Assembly: GCA_016839785.1 (NCBI GenBank)
Contig: JAEOTQ010000049.1
Coordinates: forward strand, 1-29,707
Source of the DNA: Candidatus Hodarchaeota archaeon
GTDB taxonomy: Archaea > Asgardarchaeota > Heimdallarchaeia > Hodarchaeales > Hodarchaeaceae
Direction: 5' to 3'
DNA length: 29,707 bases
A model generated the notes under the pieces. That model saw only the letters and a program-made list of their open reading frames with translations, was not told the origin of the DNA and searched no databases. Position numbers and translations under genes: made by a program. This document shows, piece by piece, positions 3,286 through 24,991 of the stretch. How positions within the stretch are numbered: the first letter of the stretch is position 1; each line of letters begins with the position of its first letter.

Positions 3286-3340
3286 GAAAAGATCCTTGAC
3301 TATTCTTTAAACTCGGCCTTTCTAGAAAAGATCCTTGACT
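3286..3340. repeat. Exact 16-bp direct repeat GAAAAGATCCTTGACT (3286-3301 and 3325-3340)
   Basis: Read directly. The second copy encodes the last codons (VKDLF) of the 853-aa gene; the first copy lies 39 nt further downstream on the minus strand. Confidence 0.9.
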
Positions 3341-5883
3341 TTTTGTTCTTCTCCTGCAAAAGCATCCAAATCACCTAACCATTTGGGAAGCTTCTTTTTA
3401 TATCGTGTTTCAAAATCATTCAAGAATTCACCAAGCTTTTTACGGAGTTCGGTTGAGGTACTGTCTGCAAATATTGCGGCAAAGACCCATTTGGCATATT
3501 CAATTGTTAGAACGACATCTCCATGGTCAATAGTCTTGAGGAGTTGCTCACTCCGAACAGCTTCTTTTGCGAATGATGTAATAGCAGAAAATAATCCAGC
3601 AACTAGGGCTGGTTCTACTTGTGATTCATCTGCAAATGTGTGCGAAAGAACAGCCCGTCCATCCAGCATCATGACGTGAAGCGAATCGATAGTTACTTCT
3701 TCGAATGAATAGGAAAATTCACGATGCCACAAGGTTATGATCTGACTAAAAGATACTTCGGCATCGTATGTGACCTCATCGAGAATTGAGTGAATTTCAC
3801 TTATTGAAGTTTCAGTATTTTTTGCTAATTGAGAAATAGTCTGCATATGCCCTGTGATAGCATTTCGGATCATTTCACCCTTCTCAGACTTCATCCATGC
3901 TTTTGTTATTAATTCTTCCGTCTTTGCATTTTTGGAAGGTGTGGCTGCAATCATCAATATGTCCGCTTTCTTTTCTAATTCATCTACACTCAGTAGTCGT
4001 GTAACATCGGAAAAAATCGACTTATATTGAGTTTTTTCTTCGCCTTTTTGCGTTCTCACATGAAATTGTTTTCCAGCAAGGAATAAAATTCCTCCATAAA
4101 TTAAGACAATGGCTAAAGGATGAAATAGATTATATGGTATTGAGAGAATTTGTAAAAACTGACCACCTGATCCCTGCCAAATTACAGGTATCTGACGAAG
4201 CTCAGGTAGAATGAACTGATAGCCAGCGAATGTCCCGCCTTTCCACACTGCTGTTAACCAATTCAAATCGATGGTTCCCAAAACAGATGTAGCTTGCAGA
4301 AAGGGTGCGACTAAAATTTCTTTCTGATAACTAGGATACAAATCCCCCACAGAGAAACCTAGGATAGTATACCAACCCTCGTTGTACCAGCCAAATAAAA
4401 ATAGACTTACAGATAAGATTGAAAGATAGGTAACGATACTTGTTCCAATTATACTCCAATTCCATCTACGAATAAATAGGACCAATGTCGCACTTAAAAG
4501 AAAACTCGCATAATTCTGAGTCAACCAAAAGAAGGTTGCATATTGAACGGTGTTAAAATTAGTGAAAATGCTTTTAACAATTACTAAATATGTTAAGAAT
4601 CCGACAGATAAAAGAAAACCTACTAAAACGCCAGAAAGAGTACTTTTCGCTATATTAATCCTATTGAAACGGCCTACTGATATTTTAAAAGCTTTAAAGC
4701 TTTCTATAAGCTTAAGCAGTAAATATATCGAGAATGGTTCAAAAATATCTAAGAAAAGAACGAAAAATATCGATACCATGATAAAATAAGCAATAAAATA
4801 TGACACAACAAATATCTGATCGAAATATTGTACCAAAAACAATATTACAGCTAATCCTGACATAAAAGCTCCAACAGTAGATAAACTTTGAATCATTGCT
4901 ATATATAATTGATTTCCTAAGAATTTACCTTTCCTTGACAATAAACTAGCCTTTATTAGGTAGATACTAAATACGAACATGGCTATATAGGCAAAATATA
5001 TTTCTAAAAACCACCCCATTGAAGTTCCTTGAAGTAAGCTTGGATTTTCGGTCTCCCCTAATAGTTGTAAAATCGTCATCAATAAAAATAGAGTAATTGG
5101 CAATATAGCAATTAAAACTTTCAATAATTCTCTTTCATTATCCCAATTCTTCTCTTTAACCCTTTTTGTAACGGCATGAAACGGAGAAGCTTCAAGTTCA
5201 AATTCAATTTCCTGTAATCTCTGTGATGTCGATCGTGCCTCAGAAAGTTGTTTTTCCAGAGCTTTATTCTCGGCTTTGAATTCCGTAATAGCAGTATTCT
5301 TTTCATATGTATCTGATTCGGTTGTATTCTTTAATTGTTTTTGAAGCTGTGAGATCTCATTATTATTTCGTTTTATTAATTTTTTAATTGGATTTATCTC
5401 ATTCCGCTTCTCGGTCCAAGTCTGGTACAAAATTATTGCCATAGATATAATAGGTGACATTCCAAAAACGAAAGCAAGAATAACTATGGGGTAACTAAGG
5501 AAAATTACTATTGAATTGAAAAAATGTTGAAATAAATACTTTATCAGAAGTGGAATAGGAATAGAAATCGCTCCCTGGGTGATCACTGATTCGGAATCCC
5601 ATACAGTAGTCCATCCAGATGTTCCAGCTACTGGATAGTATTCTTGATCAATATATTGATTCGGATCTGGCACAAACGAGTTTAATATGCTGGGAAAAAT
5701 AAAATACGCAATATAGAATACAAGAAAACCGATATAAGCACGGTTAAAGAGTGTAGCAAAAAAATTCTCCGTCTTTCGTCGAGTATACAGGTACGGTAGA
5801 AAGAGAACGATTAAGGGAGAGAATGTTAATATCAGCGAAACTACTAAATTAATCGGGTCTGTTAGGAGATCAATATTTGTCAT
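3322..5883 (-). CDS. Polytopic membrane protein (~12 TM) with coiled-coil insert, possible HTH and C-terminal longin-like domain
   Basis: Many 20+ aa hydrophobic segments. Charged heptad-like stretch (NNNEISQLQKQLK...ENKALEKQLSEAR). HTH-like QTISQLAKNTETSISEIHSIL. C-terminal SLHVMMLDGRAVLS...EPALVAGLFSAITSFAKE...FLNDFETRY...WLGDLDAF. Confidence 0.8.
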   Translation of the reverse strand: MTNIDLLTDPINLVVSLILTFSPLIVLFLPYLYTRRKTENFFATLFNRAYIGFLVFYIAYFIFPSILNSFVPDPNQYIDQEYYPVAGTSGWTTVWDSESVITQGAISIPIPLLIKYLFQHFFNSIVIFLSYPIVILAFVFGMSPIISMAIILYQTWTEKRNEINPIKKLIKRNNNEISQLQKQLKNTTESDTYEKNTAITEFKAENKALEKQLSEARSTSQRLQEIEFELEASPFHAVTKRVKEKNWDNERELLKVLIAILPITLFLLMTILQLLGETENPSLLQGTSMGWFLEIYFAYIAMFVFSIYLIKASLLSRKGKFLGNQLYIAMIQSLSTVGAFMSGLAVILFLVQYFDQIFVVSYFIAYFIMVSIFFVLFLDIFEPFSIYLLLKLIESFKAFKISVGRFNRINIAKSTLSGVLVGFLLSVGFLTYLVIVKSIFTNFNTVQYATFFWLTQNYASFLLSATLVLFIRRWNWSIIGTSIVTYLSILSVSLFLFGWYNEGWYTILGFSVGDLYPSYQKEILVAPFLQATSVLGTIDLNWLTAVWKGGTFAGYQFILPELRQIPVIWQGSGGQFLQILSIPYNLFHPLAIVLIYGGILFLAGKQFHVRTQKGEEKTQYKSIFSDVTRLLSVDELEKKADILMIAATPSKNAKTEELITKAWMKSEKGEMIRNAITGHMQTISQLAKNTETSISEIHSILDEVTYDAEVSFSQIITLWHREFSYSFEEVTIDSLHVMMLDGRAVLSHTFADESQVEPALVAGLFSAITSFAKEAVRSEQLLKTIDHGDVVLTIEYAKWVFAAIFADSTSTELRKKLGEFLNDFETRYKKKLPKWLGDLDAFAGEEQKVKDLF

Positions 5884-8358: not shown

Positions 8359-10029
8359 TTAAGTTCTTCTCTTTCTTGAAAGGAAGACGACGAGTATGGC
8401 TAAAGAAATGAATCCAGGAAAGAATGAAAAATGTGATATTTTAGATAACCCAATGTTAATTTTCTTAGATTCTAATACTGCATTCGAAAGCGATCTTATT
8501 TTAGTTGGATAGCCATTCCATGAGTCTATTTGAAATTCTTGGACATATTCTGTGGACGTAAGGTATAGAGTAGCAATTTTAAGTAATTGTTCTGCATTAA
8601 GAGACAATATCGACTTATTAGTAACAAAACGTGAAACACTATCAGCTATCAACGAATTTAAAAGAGAAGCCTCCTCTAAGAACAGAATATTCCCGCTTAA
8701 ACTTGGATGTTGATTTAATGCGATTGATTTAATTGTTGTAGGAATCACTGACCATTTTTCTGTATTAGGATCTTGATGAAGAGCATAATCATGTCCCTTT
8801 ATATGATTAATAAACAATAAATCTTCATTTTGAGTGAGGGTGATATTTTCTGTGGCCACAATATCAGACTGTATTAATTCCTCTCTTGATGTATTGCGTC
8901 CATCAATACTAACAGTTGAACTTTTCTTTGATTCGGAACCCTCTACTACCCCTAGATTATGAGAAACGAGAAATGAAAGAGAGGCTTGGTTGAATAACGA
9001 CATTCTTTTGTTAATATCATCTCCTTTATACCAAGAAAATGTATCATTAACCCGAATTAATTCAGAATATTCTTTTTCAACATGAGTCTCAGAGGCTCCT
9101 TGCCAAATTACTTCAGAAGGTAATTCTTCATTAATTACCAAATTCTGAATGGTTCCAACATTCATTTCTAATTGTGTTTCCACTCCTGTATTGGTCGAAG
9201 TTGAGTATTTTAATATTCTTGTAGAAAAACTTAGTGATTCAAATTCTATCAAAAGAAATTTGTCTGAAATTCTGAAACTACTTATTTGTTCTATATTAAT
9301 CGGATTCGTTTGAAATAGATAACTTATATTGGAATATGTTGCCGTAATTACCAATTCATTGTAGTTTTCTTGTATCGAAATCTCCATTGGATTAGTACTA
9401 GAATATGAACGGATATCATTAGATGGTACATACCCATGAATTGAATTTTTTACCATATGAACAGAATTTATTGAATCAAACAAAAATTCTAAGATATCAA
9501 GAGGGATATTCGCATACCCTACTAAGTACTGATCGTCTACAAAATCATGTCCATCCAAATTCAATGTCAAACCCAATAAATCTTGAGTGAGAATTACGCT
9601 CTCTCCTGAAGGTAAACTATAGACGGATAGATATTTAAAATATGGTAAGGATGCTTGCCATTCTACTGTTCCAAATAGAGGAATAAATTCAGTTCTTTTG
9701 ATATTTTCTACAGCTAAGAATGCAGACTTAATTCCGTGAGAATCATGACCGACTAGCGTTATATTATTATCGATATTTGGATTGGGATCAGTTTCAATCC
9801 CAAATTCTTGGCCAGTTAAAATGTTATCAAATAATTGCAGGGATTGCCCAGGGGAAATATCATTATTATAATCGAACCTTAAACCGAACAATGATTCTTG
9901 ATAGAAGGGATCAAGTTGTTCAAATTGGTAATTGATTTTCCCTACGACTCCAACATTGAATGAAGTTAATACAACAAACAAAAAAACAAATGTAAAGCCA
10001 AGTCGTATCACAGAACTCCTGAAACTCAT
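8359..10029 (-). CDS. Secreted cell-surface protein, diverged paralog of 6215..7999, with PGF-like C-terminal anchor
   Basis: N-terminal signal-like hydrophobic stretch and C-terminal FFPGFISLAILVVFLSRKRRT. Several N-x-S/T sequons. Colinear motif similarity with the neighbouring gene. Confidence 0.8.
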   Translation of the reverse strand: MSFRSSVIRLGFTFVFLFVVLTSFNVGVVGKINYQFEQLDPFYQESLFGLRFDYNNDISPGQSLQLFDNILTGQEFGIETDPNPNIDNNITLVGHDSHGIKSAFLAVENIKRTEFIPLFGTVEWQASLPYFKYLSVYSLPSGESVILTQDLLGLTLNLDGHDFVDDQYLVGYANIPLDILEFLFDSINSVHMVKNSIHGYVPSNDIRSYSSTNPMEISIQENYNELVITATYSNISYLFQTNPINIEQISSFRISDKFLLIEFESLSFSTRILKYSTSTNTGVETQLEMNVGTIQNLVINEELPSEVIWQGASETHVEKEYSELIRVNDTFSWYKGDDINKRMSLFNQASLSFLVSHNLGVVEGSESKKSSTVSIDGRNTSREELIQSDIVATENITLTQNEDLLFINHIKGHDYALHQDPNTEKWSVIPTTIKSIALNQHPSLSGNILFLEEASLLNSLIADSVSRFVTNKSILSLNAEQLLKIATLYLTSTEYVQEFQIDSWNGYPTKIRSLSNAVLESKKINIGLSKISHFSFFPGFISLAILVVFLSRKRRT

Positions 10030-11517
10030 TTAACTCCTTACCTCCAAAACTTTATCCAATGATTCTACTCTGTTAGGGTTAATAATATATGAAGATCGCT
10101 TTTTCTCTTTGATGATCATAATTATTCCTAAATCAGAAAGTCTTTTGACATGATGTTGGATGCTCGAATGGTGTACATTTATTTCGGAGGAAATTTTCGA
10201 TAGAGAAAGTGGGGATTTGTTTTGTAATAATACTTTGCAGAGCTCTTTTGCCACATCACTCTTCAGGGCTAATGCAATCTCTGATATTTGTAGAGATTCC
10301 GATCCAGTTAAGTAGAAAATATGATATTTACCAATTTTATGATGTGTCACAATATTAAAATCATCTAATGCTTGTAAATGCCATAAAAGGGAAGATATAC
10401 CACATCCCAAAGTACGCTGTATTTCTCTCAAATGTGCTCCTTGTTCTCCTTTCTCTTCTAAATACTCAACTATTTGCATTCGCATTTCATTGTCCAATAG
10501 GTCATCTTCATTTATTCTTCTTTTCTGTGGAGAATAAGCAATATGGGCTATAAAGAAAAATAATCCGAGACTTGCTCCCATAATTAAATCACGAAGGCGT
10601 GCCAGTATACCGAATTTAATTAAGCCTATTAGTGAAATAATGGCCGTAATACCGATAATACCAACCGTAACAAGCTGATCAAATCCTGATATCTGAAATA
10701 TTCCAGATGAATCAGAGAACGTATCAGTAGTCAGAAGAGCGATATCTCCTAATACATCAACTAATCCATCTGCATCAGGAGAATTCATACCCATTAATTT
10801 AAAATCGTTAATTAGTGGCGGTAATGGTAGATTGACTGAAAAACTTCCTACAACCACTTTATTTTGGACAAGCCACAGACCTGATTTAAAATCTGTTAGA
10901 TATGACTCGTTTACGGGTTGAGCAATTTCAGCTAATACTACAGTTTTCTCATGTAAATCGACCCAAGATGATGTCCCATTGAACTCATATGTTAATTGAT
11001 CTAGTTGTAGGGATGGTAGAGATTCATTCACTAATTGAATGCTATGCGTCTGAGATTCATGATTTATTGGATAAACTTCAGGCCAATAACCAGTTATCCC
11101 TAAGTTTTGTAGTTCTGCAACAGGAGTTTTGTCAAAGTACCTGTTTAGGATGAACAATCCTTTACCACTTTGCGTCCACGCACCTAGATCACCCACAAAA
11201 GAGAAATCAATCGGCAAATGAAGTTCATTGACCCACCAAATTGCTTCTATGCTTTTATTATCGAATGTAAAAGAAGAATTCAATATAACAGATGTAATAT
11301 TATAATACTCTACATCGATCTCTGCTTCCAATATCATTTCTTCGCTAAGTCGTTTATCGTTATCTGAACCATAAAAGATAGCGATTTTAGGATAATCAGT
11401 TGCGGTCACTGAGTTAGTATGAGCTAAAGTGATCTGATTTGGAAAGAAGGATAATACTCCAAAGAAAATGATGGTAAGTATGAGAATATTACACTTGAGA
11501 AAAAATCGTCTTACCAT
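10030..11517 (-). CDS. Membrane-anchored transcriptional regulator: signal peptide, extracellular domain, TM region, tandem winged-helix (ArsR/COG3398-like) domains
   Basis: N-terminal signal/TM, then an ectodomain with six sequons, then TM LVTVGIIGITAIISLIGLI. wHTH1 is LLDNEMRMQIVEYL...HLREIQRTLGCGISSLLWHLQAL; wHTH2 is LSLSKISSEINVHHSSIQHHVKRLSDLGII. The stop abuts the ATG of the next gene (TAAATG). Confidence 0.85.
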   Translation of the reverse strand: MVRRFFLKCNILILTIIFFGVLSFFPNQITLAHTNSVTATDYPKIAIFYGSDNDKRLSEEMILEAEIDVEYYNITSVILNSSFTFDNKSIEAIWWVNELHLPIDFSFVGDLGAWTQSGKGLFILNRYFDKTPVAELQNLGITGYWPEVYPINHESQTHSIQLVNESLPSLQLDQLTYEFNGTSSWVDLHEKTVVLAEIAQPVNESYLTDFKSGLWLVQNKVVVGSFSVNLPLPPLINDFKLMGMNSPDADGLVDVLGDIALLTTDTFSDSSGIFQISGFDQLVTVGIIGITAIISLIGLIKFGILARLRDLIMGASLGLFFFIAHIAYSPQKRRINEDDLLDNEMRMQIVEYLEEKGEQGAHLREIQRTLGCGISSLLWHLQALDDFNIVTHHKIGKYHIFYLTGSESLQISEIALALKSDVAKELCKVLLQNKSPLSLSKISSEINVHHSSIQHHVKRLSDLGIIMIIKEKKRSSYIINPNRVESLDKVLEVRS

Positions 11518-13216: not shown

Positions 13217-13675
13217 CTATTTCAATCGACAGAATTCTGCACGATTTCTTACAAATTTATTAACAGCCATTTTCCCATCAGTAAGAATTTGACGCATGTT
13301 TAAAGCAAACTCATCCCAATAGGCTACTAATCTTTCTCGTTGATCCTTGGTTTTTACCATCTCAGTTGTCAGAAAAAAGGATATTTGATAGCCTTCTTCT
13401 GGACTTCTAATCACTTTGACACGGGCACCTGGATTTCTCCACAACTCGTTTCTTATTCGGTCAAAAATGAACTCTTCTACAGGATCGTTGAATGTCAATT
13501 TTAGGGAGGCAATAGCGGAGTTTCCTTGTTTTATCAGTATTCCATTTTTGAACTCTACTGTTTCTCGTTTAATGTTCTCACAGCATGGGTGATCGGGGTC
13601 AAGAATACAGTTCGGTTCCATACCTGCTGTACAAGGGACTGGAAAAAGTTGTAATTGTGATTCGTCTAAATTCAA
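13217..13675 (-). CDS. ARPC4-like protein (Arp2/3 complex subunit 4 homolog)
   Basis: NSAIASLKLTFNDPVEEFIFDRIRNELWRNPGARVKVIRSPEEGYQISFFLT aligns by eye with eukaryotic ARPC4 as recalled ([52 protein letters not shown]). The C-terminal helix KMAVNKFVRNRAEF matches KLSVNARARIVAEEF. TTG start with GGTGAG SD upstream. Confidence 0.85.
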   Translation of the reverse strand: MNLDESQLQLFPVPCTAGMEPNCILDPDHPCCENIKRETVEFKNGILIKQGNSAIASLKLTFNDPVEEFIFDRIRNELWRNPGARVKVIRSPEEGYQISFFLTTEMVKTKDQRERLVAYWDEFALNMRQILTDGKMAVNKFVRNRAEFCRLK

Positions 13676-13824
13676 TATAAACTCACCAAATATGACATAA
13701 TATTCAATTTAGAGAATATAAATGTCACTAGAAGTTTTCAGACTACATGTTAATAAAATTGAGGAAGGAAGTTGTTAATTCTCTTAAAAGAGAGAAATTG
13801 CTTCTATTTCAGTTTATATTGGGC

Positions 13825-17508: not shown

Positions 17509-17781
17509 ATGGTATCACAAAAGTACCCATATTGGAGGCCATTTCCTCTGACTTTTTCAATCATGAATATCGTGGAGAGAAGAGAGGGAATTTTATTGGA
17601 AGATGATTTAGTACGCCTTCTCGAATCAGATGTAGGAGAATTCTCTGAACGCGAACTGAATCAAGCGTTAATGAAACTAGAAATAGAAGGATTAATACAT
17701 GTCCAAACAATAAAGAAAAATCAGAGAGTTATCAAACGCATCCAAAAAGGGAATAAATTCCTCACCGTCGGGGAAGACTAA
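17509..17781 (+). CDS. Small winged-helix protein
   Basis: FSERELNQALMKLEIEGLIHV followed by a beta-hairpin wing is a wHTH pattern. SD-like AGGT..GTGA upstream. Its stop overlaps the convergent gene. Confidence 0.7.
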   Translation: MVSQKYPYWRPFPLTFSIMNIVERREGILLEDDLVRLLESDVGEFSERELNQALMKLEIEGLIHVQTIKKNQRVIKRIQKGNKFLTVGED

Positions 17782-18734
17782 GATACAGACAGATTTTTTA
17801 ATTTTAACCCTAATTTTTCAAGTAATAGGCATACAGGACAGATTTCTTGAGTAGATAATTCTTTACATACCTTACACTGGTAGGTAGTTGATGTAACTTC
17901 AGAATTGGTGAAGGATTGAGATAGTGAATCGTGTACATTCACGATATTTACCAATGTACTAGGTCGCTTTTTTTCCATGTCTGATAAGAATAATCGAATA
18001 TCATTTCTCATTGCTGTATATGCGTACGGGCATGGCACGGAATGATATTCCAAGTTATTTGCATGCGCGTAAAGGACAATTTCAGGCTCAGAAATTTTAA
18101 CTAACGGACGGATCCGAGGGATGAATGAAGGAAACTTTTTACTAGGAATTCTTGATATTCGTTTGAATTTTCCTGCATCCCCACGAAGAAGATTCATTAC
18201 AATTGACTGTGCTTCATCATCTAAATTATGAGCAGTGGCAATTTTTGAAACCCCAACTGATTGACTCCCATAATTTAATGCTCTTCGTCGTAAGATTCCA
18301 CACAAAGCACAAGCAGATAATGAATTCCCGTCCTGTGTACTTTTATAGACGATTTCATCTAATGTGGCTCCATATAGATCCATAAAAGATATAATTTTAT
18401 GGTTGAGATTGTACTTTGAGGTTGTTTCTTGGGTTAATTTAAGAAACCCCTCACGATATCCTTTTATACCTTCATCTACTGTAATAGCAGTTATCTGATT
18501 TTTGGAATGAGGCTGTAAAAATACCTTGGACAGTAGATGCAATAAAATAGTGCTATCTTTACCACCTGAATAGCCTAGACCAATGTGGTCGTCTCTACTT
18601 AGCATTTTATATTTCTTTATTGATTTCTTGACCTTCTTCTCGAACAATTCAATAAAATGTTGTCTACAAAGACGTTTCTTTGTCATTGGATCCTTTGTAT
18701 ATGGTGGTTTACTACAACAATTTGATTTTTTCAT
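17778..18734 (-). CDS. tRNA 2-thiolation protein (TtuA/NcsA/Ctu1 family)
   Basis: PP-loop SGGKDS, CALCGILRR, AHNLDD, CPY, and terminal zinc fingers (LCRQHF; CKVC...CPVC). Confidence 0.92.
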   Translation of the reverse strand: MKKSNCCSKPPYTKDPMTKKRLCRQHFIELFEKKVKKSIKKYKMLSRDDHIGLGYSGGKDSTILLHLLSKVFLQPHSKNQITAITVDEGIKGYREGFLKLTQETTSKYNLNHKIISFMDLYGATLDEIVYKSTQDGNSLSACALCGILRRRALNYGSQSVGVSKIATAHNLDDEAQSIVMNLLRGDAGKFKRISRIPSKKFPSFIPRIRPLVKISEPEIVLYAHANNLEYHSVPCPYAYTAMRNDIRLFLSDMEKKRPSTLVNIVNVHDSLSQSFTNSEVTSTTYQCKVCKELSTQEICPVCLLLEKLGLKLKNLSVS

Positions 18735-18751
18735 ATCAATACATCTATTGA

Positions 18752-19051
18752 CTATGATTTGCGCTCGGAAAAGTTCAATTTAACAAGAGGAGGACATACT
18801 TTATCTGCTATAACTCCTCCATAAGCTATCGCTTTTTTTGATAATTCCTCAACATCCAATTTTGAAAATGCGGTCACTTCAAGAAATAAGCTGATTTCGA
18901 TATTCAATTCTCCCTTATCAGAGGATTCTAAGGTGATATCGATTTCACTATGTCCTAACTCATCCCCAGCTTCAGTAACTAAAAATTTGTGAATTTCCTC
19001 GTATAAATAATCAAGTAAGTCATCAGGATTCATTATGGACAAGAGATTCAC
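18752..19051 (-). CDS. Small acidic conserved archaeal protein (DUF3194-like)
   Basis: Size, acidic alpha/beta pattern, and position directly downstream of pfdB in the exosome superoperon. The true start may be a few codons downstream. Confidence 0.6.
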   Translation of the reverse strand: MNLLSIMNPDDLLDYLYEEIHKFLVTEAGDELGHSEIDITLESSDKGELNIEISLFLEVTAFSKLDVEELSKKAIAYGGVIADKVCPPLVKLNFSERKS

Positions 19052-19092
19052 CCTGACATGTTAATTTCAAGATAGAAAACTTAAGGCGGAGG

Positions 19093-19437
19093 TTATCCTA
19101 GGTCTTGACTTAATTTCTTTTGTAATTCCTCAAAACGTTCTACATTTTGCTTTTCTTGAGAGGATAATCCTTTTTTCTGAATTTCAAGCAATTCTCCTTT
19201 CTCATTTAATTCTTTTAAAACGTCTTGAGCCTTTTTTGGAAACATGACACCGCCAACAGCTTTCCAGACCTGGGTATCTCCTTCGAGAGTTTTTAACTCC
19301 TTCTTTGTAACTTCCATTTCCGAAAGTGCACGATCGATTTCATTTAACTGTAAACGGAGATTTTGTATATTTTGTTCTAGAGTCCTATAACGAACTAGTT
19401 GTTCTTGTTGAGCTGGAGAAAGTTCAGGGAGTGCCAT
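19093..19437 (-). CDS. pfdB: Prefoldin beta subunit
   Basis: ELSPAQQEQL, two coiled coils flanking the VWKAVGGVMF hairpin, and synteny. Confidence 0.93.
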   Translation of the reverse strand: MALPELSPAQQEQLVRYRTLEQNIQNLRLQLNEIDRALSEMEVTKKELKTLEGDTQVWKAVGGVMFPKKAQDVLKELNEKGELLEIQKKGLSSQEKQNVERFEELQKKLSQDLG

Positions 19438-19450
19438 TTTTTTATTTCCT

Positions 19451-19741
19451 CTAATATTGGGGATAATTTTTCTGGGTATTTACAATTTTCTTCGGGATTA
19501 TTTGAGTTAACTCGCATACCAAAGTAATCCAACGGAGCATTGAAGATATGTTCGCTTTTGCTGCTGTAATATCCTGTGAATTCACCGTAATTATCAGCGA
19601 AGTTCCTTCTAATTTCAACTTAATTTGTGATCTTTCAAAATGGTGGTCGTTAACTTCGGGAATTAATGATTCATAGATAAAATTGGCTTCTTCCAAGGAA
19701 TCAAGTCTAATTATTGTCTCAATACATACTCGACTATCCAT
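19451..19741 (-). CDS. pcc1: KEOPS complex subunit Pcc1
   Basis: EEANFIYESLIPE...RSQI...LIITVNSQDITAAKANISSMLRWI, and position between Brix and pfdB. Confidence 0.88.
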   Translation of the reverse strand: MDSRVCIETIIRLDSLEEANFIYESLIPEVNDHHFERSQIKLKLEGTSLIITVNSQDITAAKANISSMLRWITLVCELTQIIPKKIVNTQKNYPQY

Positions 19742-20316
19742 TATGCCACTTCAGGGTTCAAAGTGATTTCGAAAGATAACAAAGGTAGTTGATTTTTTGG
19801 ATCATTTCTAACTACTTCCCCACGAAATTTGCCATCCAAGTAGTCACGAAATTTTATTTTAAGACTAGTTTTCGATGGTTTACTAGCCTTAGGGACAAGT
19901 AATGGCTTTATAAAATTATGAATGTGCTCTTTCAATGATTCTGGAATATCTGGAGCATAATCGATAAGGATATTTTTATTCTCAATTCGTGTGTTTTTAT
20001 CCCCTTTTTGTGGAAAATTGAAATTCATTAATTTGACTTCAACATCAATTTGGAGAGGTGATTTCACGAAGTCATAGCAACAGAGAGAGATTGAATCAAT
20101 TTTTCTTGAGCTTTGAACAATGACCACCTTATCGATGCCCATATTCCAACAGAAATTTCGAATTTCTTTCAGACTTAATGATCCACGATTCATCCTTTTG
20201 GAAAAAGGAAGTGAAAAAGATATTAATTTACTTACACGTCTTATAAAATGAGAAGGATTGCGAGATGTCGTTATTAACAAAGGAGAGGCACCCTCTCTCT
20301 CGTTATCTGCCATCAT
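19741..20316 (-). CDS. Brix/Imp4-domain ribosome biogenesis protein
   Basis: LLITTSRNPS...NRGSLSLKEI Brix signatures, and synteny. Confidence 0.85.
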   Translation of the reverse strand: MMADNEREGASPLLITTSRNPSHFIRRVSKLISFSLPFSKRMNRGSLSLKEIRNFCWNMGIDKVVIVQSSRKIDSISLCCYDFVKSPLQIDVEVKLMNFNFPQKGDKNTRIENKNILIDYAPDIPESLKEHIHNFIKPLLVPKASKPSKTSLKIKFRDYLDGKFRGEVVRNDPKNQLPLLSFEITLNPEVA

Positions 20317-20357
20317 TCATCATTTTAACTAGATTCTTATGAGGGTGAAATCCCTCT

Positions 20358-20633
20358 CTAAGAATCAGTCTGCGTAGCAAGTCGTTTAGCTGTTCTTTGG
20401 GCTATTTTGCCTCCGGGGGTTTCTGGAGCCCATGATCCACCTGTATATCTGAATCCACAGAATTTGCATTCCCAAATCCCAATAGATACACGTTTAACTT
20501 TCAGGGAATCGCAGGAAGGACAAACATGAAACTTTTTTGAGTCCTGTTCAATTTTTTTAACTCGCTTGCGTATTGTAGCTCCATAACGGGTACCAAAACG
20601 TCCAGTTGAACCTACTTTCTTAGTACGACCCAT
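20358..20633 (-). CDS. rpl37ae: 50S ribosomal protein eL43 (L37Ae)
   Basis: RTKKVGSTGRFGTRYGATIRK, CPSC...GIWECKFC. Confidence 0.97.
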   Translation of the reverse strand: MGRTKKVGSTGRFGTRYGATIRKRVKKIEQDSKKFHVCPSCDSLKVKRVSIGIWECKFCGFRYTGGSWAPETPGGKIAQRTAKRLATQTDS

Positions 20634-20683
20634 TTTACCACCAAGTCTCCAATTTTAAGTGTATGTTTTTTACTTTTTGAAGG

Positions 20684-21538
20684 TTAGAAATCAAATTGAT
20701 ACATCTCATTCATTTCGGGGAATTGAGAACATTCCTCAATCTTCTCAAGTAACGGTGCCACCAAAGTAGCTCCTTGATCCAAAATTGTAGTAAACTCTTC
20801 CTCGGTGAATACTCCAGATTCTCCTTTCTGCATCGAACAGATAATTCCTTTATCAGTCATGGCAAAAGAAAATCGTGCTTCTTTTCCCCTATCTTCGAGT
20901 AGATTGGGATCATAGAATATGGAATCGTTAATTTTGGCAAAAGTTAGGCTAGCAACGGATCCGTTCCTTGGAAGAGGTTCTGTTTCCTCCAAAAGAGTAA
21001 CTTCTTCGAGATCCTCGTTGATTACAACCTTTCTTAGTCGGGTATTTGCAAGCGCGGCCATTGCGCCGAGAGCGGCAGCATCAATTAAATTTCCACCATC
21101 ATCAAGAATATAGACATCAATAAAAATAATCCAAACTTTCTTTCCAGGAATAACACATAATTTTGGATCCTTCATAGGCATAATTTTGCTTTCACGAATA
21201 CCACGATCGACAACACGGGCCAACTCAACGGTTCGGGGACCAGGAGGGCCACTTTCATTGGTTGGTGACGAAATTGGTGATATTTCTGCATTTACAGTAA
21301 TAACGCCGTCATTCGGTGTATCAGGGAAAGGTGAACCTAGCTGAGCTTTCACACCTGCTAGTATAACAGTTTCTCCCCATTTAACCATTGCTGATCCTTC
21401 TGCTTTTTTAATTACATTTGGAATAATCTGAACGGGTCTACCTTCCAAAAATTTTCTTCCATCTGCTCTTTTTCCTTTTTCAAGCAATTTAGTTATGTAT
21501 TGCTTCTCTAAAACTCCAACTATTTCTTCTGAACGCAT
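20684..21538 (-). CDS. rrp42: Exosome subunit Rrp42
   Basis: RNase PH fold motifs KAEGSA, PFPDTPNDG, ELARVVDRGIRES, DDGGNLIDAA. Start placed at ATG 21538 after AGGTGA (ORF track 21547). Confidence 0.95.
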   Translation of the reverse strand: MRSEEIVGVLEKQYITKLLEKGKRADGRKFLEGRPVQIIPNVIKKAEGSAMVKWGETVILAGVKAQLGSPFPDTPNDGVITVNAEISPISSPTNESGPPGPRTVELARVVDRGIRESKIMPMKDPKLCVIPGKKVWIIFIDVYILDDGGNLIDAAALGAMAALANTRLRKVVINEDLEEVTLLEETEPLPRNGSVASLTFAKINDSIFYDPNLLEDRGKEARFSFAMTDKGIICSMQKGESGVFTEEEFTTILDQGATLVAPLLEKIEECSQFPEMNEMYQFDF

Positions 21539-21547
21539 AATATTCAC

Positions 21548-22303
21548 CTACTCCTCTTCGTCCCCCACGTCATTAGTAGTACCCTCAATTTGGGTATATT
21601 TGGCCAAGACTGCTTCTCTTTGCAACTTGTAAACATCACCAATAGCTCGAATTGCGAGTGATAAACCTTCTTTTACTTCCTCAATTGTGAACTCACCATC
21701 ACATTGGAGCAAAGTGATTTCCCCAGTGTTAAAGTTCATCGCAACAGGCATGTCACCTTGGCCATCTTTATCTTCGACATCGGACAGGTCAACAACCATT
21801 TTGTCTGCGACCTTTCCTACAGCACATCCAGTAATGAAACCTTTCATTGGAATCCCCGCATCTGCAAGGGCTATTGAGGCTGCAGTCAACGCGGCACAGC
21901 GAGTGCCTCCATCTGCATCTAAAACTGTTATATAAACATCAATTGTACCGTTTGGAAACTTTTCTAAGAATAAAACGGCATCTAATGATTCCTTAATTAA
22001 TTTACTTAATTCATATTCTCTACGTCTTGGAGCAGGGCTTTTTCGCTCATTGACAGAAAATGTAGCTAATCGATATTCAACTCGGACTATAGCGCGATCA
22101 GGTTTTGCCAGATGTTTTGGGTGCAATTCCCTAGGACCGTATACTGCACATATTATTTTGTTATTACCCCAAGTTAGATAACAACTCCCATCTGCTCTGT
22201 CCAAAACACTACTTTGCATAGTAATTGGACGTAATTCATGAAGTTCTCTACCATCTAAACGTCGTCCATCATCCATAAGTAGAGATGTTTTTTCTTTTGT
22301 CAT
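21548..22303 (-). CDS. rrp41: Exosome catalytic subunit Rrp41
   Basis: GRRLDGR..ELRPI, VYGPRELHP, ADGGTRCA, EDKDGQGDMP with catalytic Asp residues present. Start at ATG 22303 (ORF track 22312). Confidence 0.96.
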   Translation of the reverse strand: MTKEKTSLLMDDGRRLDGRELHELRPITMQSSVLDRADGSCYLTWGNNKIICAVYGPRELHPKHLAKPDRAIVRVEYRLATFSVNERKSPAPRRREYELSKLIKESLDAVLFLEKFPNGTIDVYITVLDADGGTRCAALTAASIALADAGIPMKGFITGCAVGKVADKMVVDLSDVEDKDGQGDMPVAMNFNTGEITLLQCDGEFTIEEVKEGLSLAIRAIGDVYKLQREAVLAKYTQIEGTTNDVGDEEE

Positions 22304-22318
22304 ATATTTCAACCTTTA

Positions 22319-23026
22319 TTATAAATTCTTTTTTTCTTCTTCTAAATAAGCACGAATCCTATCTGTAAGCCCACTAGTATGAGCTTCTGCTTCAATCTTG
22401 CGAATTGCACGAATAACTAGATTTTCCTTTTCAACCGAATTTGCAGAAACCACAATACGTCCATTTTGACCAACAATAATTTGCGCATTAGTCATATTTT
22501 TTAGCAATTGAATCATACTGCCCTTCTTACCTATTATTCGTGGTATTTTCACTGGATCAACATCAATTAACCTTCCGTGGGTTATTTTTCGAAGACCTCT
22601 TCCTTGCATCGTAAGTACAGGATCTCTAGTACGATCAAAGTAAGTAATCTGTGCTTTAATGATGTCTCCAAAGTTTAAAACCTCTTCTAAGCTCTCTCTG
22701 AGAGAATCGAAATCGCGATCTAATACACTGTTTACTCGAAGAGCACCAACATATGGGCCTCGTATATCAACATTCCAAGAGGTAATTCCAACCCTAACAA
22801 TTTTTCCAATAATAATATCTCCCTCTAAAGGAATATAACAACCTTCTAATGGGACAACACCAACACTGTCTTTCCGTATTTTAACTAATCCAATCATGGA
22901 GGCTATAATTTCAGTTTCTCCTTTCACTTTTTTCCGATAGACTCCACCCGCAACATCGACTCCAGATCCACGTGCGAGAACTTCACCTGGTACGACCAGC
23001 TGATTTTTGCTTACTAATAATGTCAT
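22319..23026 (-). CDS. rrp4: Exosome RNA-binding subunit Rrp4
   Basis: VVPGEVL, YIPLEGDIIIG (S1 domain), PRIIGKKGSMI (KH domain), VGQNGRI, EAHTSGLTDRI. Start moved to ATG 23026 to remove the overlap with SBDS. Confidence 0.95.
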   Translation of the reverse strand: MTLLVSKNQLVVPGEVLARGSGVDVAGGVYRKKVKGETEIIASMIGLVKIRKDSVGVVPLEGCYIPLEGDIIIGKIVRVGITSWNVDIRGPYVGALRVNSVLDRDFDSLRESLEEVLNFGDIIKAQITYFDRTRDPVLTMQGRGLRKITHGRLIDVDPVKIPRIIGKKGSMIQLLKNMTNAQIIVGQNGRIVVSANSVEKENLVIRAIRKIEAEAHTSGLTDRIRAYLEEEKKNL

Positions 23027-23042
23027 TTTTATCACTTTATTA

Positions 23043-23777
23043 TCATAATCTAATTCTTTCAATAACTTTGATTTCAGAGCGACCCTTTGTCATGCCCTGT
23101 ACCATCTCCATAAACTCCCCTTGTACTCCCGCTGCAACACTTACAACCGCAATCCAAGATCCATCTTTCTGCCATTCATCCTTTTCGATCTGACCCTTAC
23201 GTTTGATTTCCCCATATGCTTTTCCAGTAAACTCAGGAGGTATCTGTACGGCTAATTTTACCGTCTCCATACTTATTGGAATAACTTTTCTAAGGTCAAC
23301 AATTATACTCTTGATCTGCTCTTCTGCTGATTTAGTCGGATCAACCATCACTTTAGCTTCTTTCATTGCATTTTCAATTCTCAATGGAGGATGGGGAGTT
23401 CGAGTTTTAGGATTTATACAGGTTTTAGCAAGTAAATTGACAATTTGTTTTCTTTTTTTCTCAAAAAATTCCTGTCTTTGCTCTGAGGTTAAGTTTAAAT
23501 CTCCTTTAATGAGGATTTTTTCTGCGATTTCAGTGATGTTGGTTGTTTGAAAACAATGATCTAAAATTTCTTCAGAAGCTCGTTCACCCTTACTCGCATT
23601 TTCAAAGACCTCATCCACTTCAAGAATGTCGCTAACGGTTATTGACTCATCAAGAAGTCCCATTTTGTACTTTAAGGCAAGTTCAGGATTAACTATCAAT
23701 TCAAACCTATTTCCTTCAAATTTGGCTCGTACAATGGATTTTCCTGAAAGATCAAATCTTCTTGCATCTCGTAACAT
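23043..23777 (-). CDS. Ribosome maturation factor SBDS/Sdo1
   Basis: GNRFELIV, ASKGERAS, INPKTRTPHPPLRIENAM, WQKDGSW. Confidence 0.95.
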   Translation of the reverse strand: MLRDARRFDLSGKSIVRAKFEGNRFELIVNPELALKYKMGLLDESITVSDILEVDEVFENASKGERASEEILDHCFQTTNITEIAEKILIKGDLNLTSEQRQEFFEKKRKQIVNLLAKTCINPKTRTPHPPLRIENAMKEAKVMVDPTKSAEEQIKSIIVDLRKVIPISMETVKLAVQIPPEFTGKAYGEIKRKGQIEKDEWQKDGSWIAVVSVAAGVQGEFMEMVQGMTKGRSEIKVIERIRL

Positions 23778-23779
23778 GA

Positions 23780-24517
23780 CTATTCCTCTTTATTCTTAAT
23801 TTGCTTAATGAGATTTAATATATCTATCGAGGTGAAATAGTTTAATTTTCGATCTGTACTGGATATTACAGCAATCTCGACCATGTCGGGATCGAGATTA
23901 TCATCAGAAACTTTTTGTAATGCCTTTAGTGCTACTAATATTCCCTCTTGGAGTGTTTTAGAAATTTCTGGGTAAGAATTTTCTAGCTCTTCCACAATAA
24001 TAGGAGTTCCTGAACCAATAGCCGCAGCCCTATACCCCCAATAACTACCACTCGGTTCTGTCATGAATAATTGAGGGCCTTTGATTTCATCTACTCCTGC
24101 AATTATTAATGAAACACCGAACGGTCGTACTCCTGCGTGCTGAGTATAAGCCTGTTTAACGTCAGCTATTCTGTGGGTAAGATTTTCAACCGTTATTGGT
24201 TCATTATAAGTGATTTGATGAATTTGGGCTTGAATCCGTGCCTGATTCACCAATATTCGTGCATCAGCAGTTAATCCAGCAATAGCAACAGCAATGTGGT
24301 CATCTATTGCAAAAATCTTCTTGACCATTTCTTTCTCAATCAGGGTGGTATGTAATCTTTTCTGTACTGCAAGAATGCAACCTTCTGCAGTTTTAATTCC
24401 AACAGCTGTTGTTCCCCTCTTGACCGCTTCAATTGCATACTCTACCTGAAACAATCGCCCATCAGGGCTAAAAATCGTACTCCCTCTGTCATAACCTAAT
24501 CCTTTTGGGGCAAACAA
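23780..24517 (-). CDS. psmA: 20S proteasome alpha subunit
   Basis: GYDRGSTIFSPDGRLFQVEYA, GLTADARIL, YTQHAGVRPFGVSL. Start moved to TTG 24517 (MFAPKGLGYDR) after an AGGTGG SD. Confidence 0.97.
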   Translation of the reverse strand: MFAPKGLGYDRGSTIFSPDGRLFQVEYAIEAVKRGTTAVGIKTAEGCILAVQKRLHTTLIEKEMVKKIFAIDDHIAVAIAGLTADARILVNQARIQAQIHQITYNEPITVENLTHRIADVKQAYTQHAGVRPFGVSLIIAGVDEIKGPQLFMTEPSGSYWGYRAAAIGSGTPIIVEELENSYPEISKTLQEGILVALKALQKVSDDNLDPDMVEIAVISSTDRKLNYFTSIDILNLIKQIKNKEE

Positions 24518-24991
24518 CTCATTCCACCTGAAACAGTACCTTTTTTGTTCTTTCTCTTTCAATCCAATCGAGTTTATCTCGAATATTTAACGCTTCAGAC
24601 GATAATTTTCTTCAAATCCTATTTTTAGAAAACGATCGCTCGATTTTTATTACAAATTTAGACAACTCTAAAAATTCCCCAATGAAAAAATTTCACAATT
24701 TCTGTAAGAAAAATAGAAAAAGGCTTTTAAGCGAAATCTTCCTTTGAATAAAGCTTTCTTCTTCCTCTATCAACAGAAATCATCTTGATTTTGTATGAAT
24801 TATTCCTGATAGTTGGTTCGGATCTGATAGAAAAAAAAGTCCACTAAATTCAAAATTTAAGCGACCCCAAGAGAGTAGCTAGGAAAGGGGATGGTAAGCT
24901 GTTAAAAACTATTTAAGTTGTGCATTTCTTCTGCTGATTCAAGACGATTTTCAGTGCATTTCTTTAAAAAATTCAGAAAAGGTGTTATTTC

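Follow-up and report, generated by a model that had tools for sequence, protein, structure and literature searches.

How did eukaryotes come by the seven-subunit Arp2/3 complex, which branches actin filaments and has ARPC4 as a core piece, and what would a single relative of that subunit do in an archaeon? The origin of the complex is an open question for the eukaryotic cytoskeleton, and it is raised by a locus in a 29,707-nucleotide stretch of DNA (hereafter the window; contig JAEOTQ010000049.1 of assembly GCA_016839785.1, numbered C246 here). The window contains an open reading frame (ORF) of 152 amino acids (aa) whose product is a true ARPC4 (p20-Arc) family protein, archaeal and stand-alone; the host is a Heimdall-group (Hodarchaeales-like) Asgard archaeon. 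An earlier annotation made from the letters alone (the sequence-only reading) had placed the ORF at 13217-13675, exactly where it lies on the minus strand, and had called its product an ARPC4 homologue that might act as a homodimer on actin filaments. The reading preferred here, to which a probability of roughly 0.35 is given as a whole, is that the protein is an ARPC4 homologue with an N-terminal metal site, that it pairs with itself, and that the pair binds actin filaments.

The family was reportedly first listed in the 2017 Asgard genome paper. A homologue of ARP2/3 subunit 4 in Asgard archaea and Heimdallarchaeota is given in PMC7444086, which also reports actin in all Asgard phyla, and subunit 4 homologues are listed among Asgard cytoskeletal genes in PMC7522288 and PMC12583498; no function is assigned in the portions of these papers that were available. 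The available text of PMC12077186 states that putative ARP2/3 homologues are encoded in some Hodarchaeales genomes, and that the Hodarchaeales-like group has lately been put forward as the lineage that is sister to eukaryotes. In the accessible part of a 2026 preprint, ARPC4 appears among catalogue-matched structural clusters shared by Asgard archaea and eukaryotes. The sequence-only reading had mentioned a report of an ARPC4-like gene in Heimdallarchaeota with no resolved function, and PMC7444086, PMC7522288, PMC12583498 and PMC12077186 bear this out as far as their available text extends. No publication treating an archaeal ARPC4 protein in its own right was found under ARPC4 combined with Asgard or archaea, and supplementary tables of eukaryotic signature proteins may hold more. 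The ARPC4 family is therefore already known in Asgard archaea and in print, so that the discovery value is small, and the protein of the window adds one more member, distinguished by a variant pattern of cysteines. It lends itself to direct tests, being short (152 aa), encoded by a single gene copy, and predicted to self-pair, and among the subunits searched (ARPC2, ARPC3, ARPC4, and ARPC5) ARPC4 alone has a detected archaeal relative in this genome.

Profile, fold, and motifs make it almost certain that the 152-aa protein is a true ARPC4 homologue, as the sequence-only reading had claimed. The protein scores 31.3 bits with the Pfam model PF05856 (ARPC4), above the curated gathering cut-off of 22.2 bits (E 1.8e-7), and the gene scored 30.2 bits when the whole genome was scanned with the same model; no NCBIfam model matches the protein. 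A search of the PDB sequences with the single sequence placed ARPC4 chains on top at a weak E of 0.08. With a family profile (A3, an alignment of 37 family members in 37 rows), fission-yeast ARPC4 was reached at E 3.1e-13, cattle ARPC4 at E 8e-13, and ARPC2 at E 0.049. The PDB match of a member from Heimdallarchaeaceae spanned only residues 59-153 of the chain. The three sequence features that had been recognized by eye were all located: the P-x-EGY-x-ISF-x-LT motif is present as P92-E-E-G-Y-Q-I-S-F-F-L-T103, the NS...D-x-V-E segment as N52-S53 ... D64-P-V-E67, and the long C-terminal helix was modelled as one helix. In HMMER alignments the NS, D-x-V-E, and strand-motif segments pair with their equivalents in bovine and fission-yeast ARPC4, and in alignments with the eukaryotic proteins the counterparts of K135, N139, and R143 are likewise K, N, and R.

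The fold was predicted with AlphaFold2 from an alignment holding 22 relatives (mean predicted local distance difference test score, pLDDT, 84.6; predicted template modelling score 0.73) and consists of a three-stranded N-terminal sheet, a helix, two further strands, and a C-terminal helix of 40 residues. Foldseek returned 11 PDB matches at E <= 0.001, of which ranks 1-9 were ARPC4 chains, the best with E 9.2e-7 and a template modelling score of 0.74, and ranks 10-11 were ARPC2. With VIA-align, eight ARPC4 entries gave Z 15.1-16.1; the superposition on 1tyq_F (Z 16.1, root-mean-square deviation 2.2 Å, 148 of 152 residues) places residues 1-152 of the model on residues 11-167 of the chain, so that the whole protein has the ARPC4 fold, beyond the part matched by Pfam. 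Compared with eukaryotic ARPC4 (chain F of 1K8K, 1TYQ, and 3DWL; 167-168 aa), the archaeal protein is of the same length class and shares the fold over its whole length and the motifs NS, D-x-[VI]-E, P-x-EGY-x-ISF, and, on the C-terminal helix, K-x3-N-x3-R, although the identity is just 18-20% or so and the Pfam profile covers only residues 47-147. ARPC2 (p34-Arc, PF04045), the pairing partner of ARPC4 in eukaryotes, came next in the VIA-align ranking through its C-terminal domain (chain D, about 120-276; Z 6.2-10.2, with 8.1-10.2 for most chains, over about 130 residues). Its alpha/beta and long-helix fold is the same, but the likeness is much weaker than to ARPC4 (10-12% identity and the profile E given above), and ARPC2 has two such domains where the archaeal protein has one.

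The gene is conserved well beyond the window. Among 77 candidate relatives, 71 matched at E <= 0.001, with 62-88% identity over nearly the full length; the named ones are entered as 'hypothetical protein' from metagenome-assembled genomes (MAGs) labelled Hodarchaeales, Hodarchaeota, Heimdallarchaeota, or Promethearchaeota. Nonsynonymous divergence (dN) from 11 orthologues of the same genus is 0.21-0.39, which can be quoted only by itself, with no dN/dS number, because synonymous sites are saturated in all 11 full-length comparisons. That the ORF arose by chance, or resembles ARPC4 by coincidence, could be argued from the E of 0.08 obtained with the single sequence, but this explanation is refuted by a Pfam score above the curated cut-off, a profile E of 3e-13, Z 16.1 along the whole length, the 71 relatives, and low dN beside saturated synonymous divergence, and its probability is negligible.

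The start of the coding sequence was examined in 12 loci of the genus, where the start codon occupies the same aligned position and is TTG in 11 and ATG in one. Because this position and the 18 residues preceding the internal Met19 are conserved among relatives, public gene calls that give the protein as 134 aa are probably truncated at the N-terminus. A TGG(T/A/G)(G/T)GA(G/A)-like element stands at the site of the Shine-Dalgarno-like GGTGAG in the 11 genus loci that were aligned, and most of these also have an A/T-rich TATA-like element at a similar distance. The gene therefore probably has a promoter of its own, as judged from these two elements at like distances in other loci of the genus. 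Six sequencing runs contain the stretch or part of it, all of them marine-sediment metagenome DNA, and no RNA run is listed.

Ahead of the first strand lies a cluster of cysteines that the sequence-only reading had overlooked, although few features of the archaeal family are better conserved. In the A3 alignment C32 never varies, and conservation at C15 and C23 reaches at least 90%. Cysteines were counted in 117 family sequences aligned to the family profile (database proteins and locus ORFs, with some redundancy; 118 were tried and the unmatched P0082 was excluded), and 103 of the 117 have at least four cysteines in residues 12-36. The other 14 comprise eight with three cysteines, all of them gene calls that start after C15, five fragments that lack the region, and P0072, which has two. 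Most members of other lineages carry C-x8-9-[YF]-P-C-x2-C-x2-3-C, while the clade of the window has C15-x7-C23-x2-D26-x2-H29-x-C31-C32, that is, D/E-x2-H/D-x-C-C in place of C-x2-C-x2-3-C with all four cysteines retained; some close relatives keep C-x2-C-x2-C-x2-C. On a quick unrooted tree of 50 rows the D/H-CC form is found solely inside the window's own clade (Shimodaira-Hasegawa-like approximate likelihood ratio test support 99), and it is probably derived, because every other lineage on the tree has the C-x2-C or a related form.

The conservation suggests a structural metal, probably zinc, bound by the N-terminal segment, and this is considered rather likely; C15, C23, C31, and C32 would serve as ligands, with D26 and H29 nearby. 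The four-cysteine cluster would distinguish the archaeal protein from eukaryotic ARPC4, which is not known to have such a cluster or a bound zinc. No publication describing the cluster, or the self-pairing of Asgard ARPC4 proteins, was found in the literature that was available, and again the supplementary signature-protein tables may hold more. Alternatively, the protein may be a metal- or redox-sensing regulator in which the cluster acts as a switch for pairing or for the binding of partners, operated by zinc release, a disulphide, or an iron-sulphur centre; it would then be a sensor module and not a passive clamp. Such a role could coexist with the preferred reading, and it draws on the cysteines, which rank near the top for conservation in the archaeal family, and on P0083 (383 aa), in which an ARPC4-like module is fused to an ATC_hydrolase-type domain and a cysteine-containing tail. 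It is nonetheless judged improbable, since a short loop with four cysteines is in most cases a structural zinc site and no redox or metal-handling gene adjoins in the window.

Self-pairing was predicted by modelling two copies of the protein with alignment A3 in three runs, with three controls. The homodimer score was 0.66 (runs 0.68, 0.66, and 0.65) and the best of the three controls gave 0.00; among proteins of solved structure, 20 of 30 same-chain pairs and one of 23 single chains attained the mark against which the score is read. Contact agreement among the runs was 100% and the partner pLDDT was at least 88. The predicted interface is symmetric and formed by helix 65-86 and helix 115-152, with on-axis contacts 137-137 and 138-138, so that these two helices would pack antiparallel around a two-fold axis near residues 137-138. 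On this model the protein may well form a symmetric homodimer, a claim held about as firmly as that for the metal site. Residues conserved in at least 80% of the family are R73, L78, F123, N139, and R143 within the interface and, outside it, N52, S53, S57, D64, K135, K140, and the strand-motif residues P92, E93, G95, I98, and F100.

The genome that holds the window (4.04 Mb in 248 contigs, 84.5% complete) was searched for the remainder of an actin-branching system. The ARPC4-like gene is single-copy, with one match each to the Pfam model and to the family's own profile. Two other genomes of the genus, G070 (C83, C30) and G075 (C125, C51), have two ARPC4-like matches each; the copy at locus L011 is 53% identical to the protein of the window, has a Roadblock gene upstream, and could be a paralogue or reflect a mixed bin. 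One gene of the actin family (PF00022) was detected, at 439.7 bits (contig C4, 22817-23923). Arp2 and Arp3 beside a conventional actin were thus not found, the single match coming from a genome that is 84.5% complete and could have a gene missed; the PF00022 model is sensitive, having matched in five of 14 control genomes, all five bacterial, and with it no Arp2-Arp3 pair was detected. Gelsolin domains score above the cut-off at five places in the genome, and a profilin-like match is sub-threshold at 13.7 bits. No match at E <= 1 was obtained in the genome for ARPC2 (PF04045), ARPC3 (PF04062), or ARPC5 (PF04699), a search that did not extend to ARPC1 (WD40), and the negatives for ARPC2 and ARPC5 are weak because PF04045 and PF04699 matched in no control genome either.

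The archaeal protein differs from eukaryotic ARPC4 in its predicted self-pairing in place of pairing with ARPC2, in a genome where no ARPC2, ARPC3, ARPC5, or second actin gene was detected. A single gene would provide the two halves that in eukaryotes come from ARPC2 and ARPC4, and the dimer would attach laterally to filaments of the genome's one actin as a clamp, a bundler, or an anchoring platform; branch nucleation is left out of the proposal because no Arp2 or Arp3 was detected. That the dimer binds and organizes actin filaments in this way is a tentative step of the proposal, possible and somewhat doubtful. The sequence-only reading had suggested that the homodimer may represent a pre-duplication ancestor of the ARPC2/ARPC4 clamp, with which the single copy, the lack of a detected ARPC2, and the fold match (Z of about 10) to the ARPC2 C-terminal domain all agree. 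The stronger proposition, that a metal-stabilized ARPC4-like homodimer was the ancestral actin-filament clamp which duplicated to give the ARPC2-ARPC4 pair at a time when Arp2, Arp3, and the remaining subunits had yet to join, is speculative and considered unlikely; were it true, the archaeal protein would be a living model of the first step toward branched actin networks.

The same searches bear on whether the protein might be one subunit of a cryptic multi-subunit complex resembling Arp2/3, whose other members are too divergent for the profiles. The weakness of the ARPC2 and ARPC5 negatives (no match anywhere, control genomes included), the incompleteness of the genome, and the putative ARP2/3 homologues stated for some Hodarchaeales genomes in the available text of PMC12077186 leave room for this explanation. 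It is very unlikely, however: the sensitive PF00022 model finds one actin-family gene and no Arp2-Arp3 pair, the family's own profile finds no second paralogue with the ARPC4/ARPC2 fold, no neighbours are conserved across families, and a helical protein that adjoins the gene in one other family (f4, described below) is absent from this genome by search and lacks likeness to ARPC3 or ARPC5.

The distribution of the family was determined by scanning 400 genomes of the phylum, of which 70 gave a match at E <= 0.001, 69 being above the cut-off. Of the 90 genomes with completeness of 90% or more and contamination of no more than 5%, 19 gave a match. By family, with the window's genome excluded, the protein occurs in 20/21 genomes of its own family and in 26/31, 3/3, 3/5, 6/6, and 4/4 of others, and it is missing or nearly so from four more (0/12, 0/19, 0/14, and 1/135, the last match lying below the cut-off). 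The highest scores to the eukaryote-based Pfam profile (48.7, 46.2, and 42.8 bits) belong to two other families of the same class, and some of these matches span profile positions 13-164; the window's genus scores 30-37 bits. In the family profile search all named proteins among the best 120 of 123 matches came from Asgard MAGs, and distant members (20-30% identity) came from Heimdallarchaeaceae. One of the 17 clusters from the representative search, P0082, was discarded as a spurious repeat protein.

The following observations weigh against the preferred reading. The homodimer suggested by the sequence-only reading stands as a prediction of the model (0.66 versus 0.00 in the controls), but this result may be an echo of complexes already solved, because structures of ARPC4 with its fold-mate ARPC2 exist, and may therefore reflect likeness to the ARPC2-ARPC4 pair and not binding. 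Interface conservation was rejected as support for the dimer, as the interface residues are not significantly more conserved than the rest of the two helices (mean entropy 1.76 versus 2.08, Mann-Whitney p 0.13). In the clade of the window Asp or Glu stands where the general C-x2-C pattern has its third cysteine, so that the metal site may differ or be lost there. The family is patchy (70/400) while actin is reported in all Asgard phyla (PMC7444086, in its available part), and the protein is consequently not a general requirement of the Asgard actin system. Finally, no actin-related neighbour was seen in the window or in the scanned loci, and the neighbours differ between families; the sequence-only reading had rightly noted that neither actin nor another Arp2/3 subunit is in the window, for the 28 ORFs scanned.

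The last two observations would fit a protein with the same fold, probably dimeric, that serves as a non-actin adaptor or chaperone-like scaffold, for example for a Roadblock/LC7 protein and a small GTPase, and that was recruited to actin only on the eukaryotic stem. The next structural neighbours after ARPC4 and ARPC2 are class I type III secretion chaperones (InvB, SicP, CesT, SigE, and others), which are dimeric; their Z of 4-5.7 over about 90-100 residues suggests that the fold is a general partner-binding alpha/beta platform. This distant likeness may be just a common arrangement, as there is no sequence likeness (5-11% identity) and neither the C-terminal helix of 40 residues nor the cysteine cluster is present in the chaperones. 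In 11 of the 12 genus loci (that of the window included) the gene immediately upstream, on the same strand, encodes a Roadblock/LC7 protein, the twelfth locus beginning at a contig end, and in f4 a conserved helical protein is upstream in 13/13 loci. The Roadblock neighbour is not kept outside the genus, however, and about 150 nt with the TATA-like element separate it from the ARPC4-like gene. Moreover, polar surface residues common to the archaeal protein and eukaryotic ARPC4 (N52, S53, D64, K135, N139, and R143) point to a conserved interaction and not to the fold alone. A scaffold of this kind is possible, with a probability that we place on a level with that of the actin-binding step in the preferred reading.

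The coordinates of the gene, its elements, and the other features of the window are collected in Table 1.

Table 1. Positions of the ARPC4-like gene, its parts and signals, and other features of the window
Feature	Position	Strand	Extent or place	Basis or match
ARPC4-like coding sequence	13217-13675	minus	152 aa and stop; TTG start at 13675-13673	ORF list, Pfam, fold match; start conserved in 12/12 genus loci
N-terminal cysteine cluster	13580-13633	minus	residues 15-32 (C15, C23, D26, H29, C31, C32)	probable zinc site, from conservation
Pfam ARPC4 core	13235-13537	minus	residues 47-147	profile positions 62-162 of 167
Strand motif PEEGYQISFFLT	13367-13402	minus	residues 92-103	common to eukaryotic ARPC4 by alignment
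Long C-terminal helix	13223-13348	minus	residues 110-151; bears conserved K135, N139, K140, R143	model secondary structure, conservation
Shine-Dalgarno-like GGTGAG	13682-13687	minus	6 nt upstream of the TTG start	sequence; putative function
TATA-box-like TTTATATT	13715-13722	minus	40-47 nt upstream of the start codon	sequence; putative
Roadblock/LC7 (MglB-like), 142 aa	13825-14253	minus	directly upstream, same strand	Pfam PF03259, 35.9 bits; weak MglB likeness, 18.3 bits
Archaellin/type IV pilin N-terminal signal protein, 368 aa	12016-13122	plus	convergent with the ARPC4-like gene	TIGR02537, 25.4 bits; no Pfam domain
Heimdall-CTERM protein, 594 aa	6215-7999	minus	domain at the end of the protein	NF045529, 25.9 bits; no Pfam domain
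853-aa ORF	3322-5883	minus		no Pfam at E <= 0.001; no NCBIfam above any cut-off
556-aa ORF	8359-10029	minus		no Pfam at E <= 0.001; no NCBIfam above any cut-off
495-aa protein	10030-11517		after the 556-aa ORF	C-terminal helix-turn-helix domains
Housekeeping row	17778-24562	minus	PP-loop ATPase, prefoldin beta, Pcc1, L37ae, two RNase PH exosome subunits, Rrp4, SBDS, proteasome alpha	

The neighbours in the window are translation and proteostasis housekeeping genes, including aEF-1beta and CDC48, and the conserved archaeal housekeeping row identifies the contig as archaeal chromosome. Within the genus the gene order is aEF-1beta, a small zinc-finger protein, Roadblock/LC7, the ARPC4-like gene, and then the convergent pilin-like gene, of which shorter relatives occupy the same place in other genus loci. 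The 594-aa protein is probably a surface protein, and its terminal domain is a marker of the Heimdall group. Roadblock/LC7 was considered as a family-wide partner and rejected: the scan took in 49 of 62 neighbouring ORFs (all of 90 aa or more) from 16 loci in other families and left aside 13 that were near-duplicates from sister loci or short edge ORFs, and 0/49 are Roadblock proteins at E <= 1e-4. The Roadblock neighbour is a genus-level feature and sets the window's genus apart from other Asgard ARPC4-like proteins, which belong to the same family. Elsewhere the gene adjoins pyruvate:ferredoxin oxidoreductase beta and PadR-TRASH genes, a gene for an IFT52-GIFT-domain protein, CYTH and RNA cyclase genes, or Nuo and carbamoyl-phosphate synthase genes, depending on the family, and the neighbourhood is uninformative on function because it is conserved only within families.

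In f4 the helical protein of about 150 aa is encoded directly upstream on the same strand (e.g., L006:2023-2460 - and L007:853-1290 +) with a class-V aminotransferase gene and a radical-SAM gene on its flanks; the sequence of one f4 protein is the same as that of a protein labelled Heimdallarchaeum. Its model (pLDDT 88.9) has six helices and a hairpin. It was considered as a hidden ARPC3 or ARPC5 and rejected on the basis of its best matches in Pfam (E 9e-4, to an unrelated family) and the PDB sequences (E 0.83). Foldseek gave no match at E <= 0.001, a wide VIA search gave just generic helical bundles with Z <= 8, and the best value in the ESM Atlas was 0.78. The helical protein, which fits no known family, is a candidate partner of the ARPC4-like protein in f4.

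Variant forms of the ARPC4-like protein occur in two further families. Fused proteins of 383-394 aa were found in genomes G300-G303 (family f27 of the phylum scan). In P0083 an N-terminal ATC_hydrolase-type domain (28.5 bits, cut-off 28.1) is followed by the ARPC4-like module (23.0 bits) and the cysteine-containing tail; the module and its cysteine cluster are shared with the protein of the window, which is the bare module, whereas the extra domain and the tail belong to the fused proteins (about 380-395 aa). In family f13 (L009:191-1420 + and L029:1-1338 +) the ARPC4-like ORFs are 203-210 aa long with an N-terminal extension of about 60 aa, and the gene is convergent with one for an IFT52 GIFT domain/ABC_transp_aux protein (67.5 and 60.1 bits).

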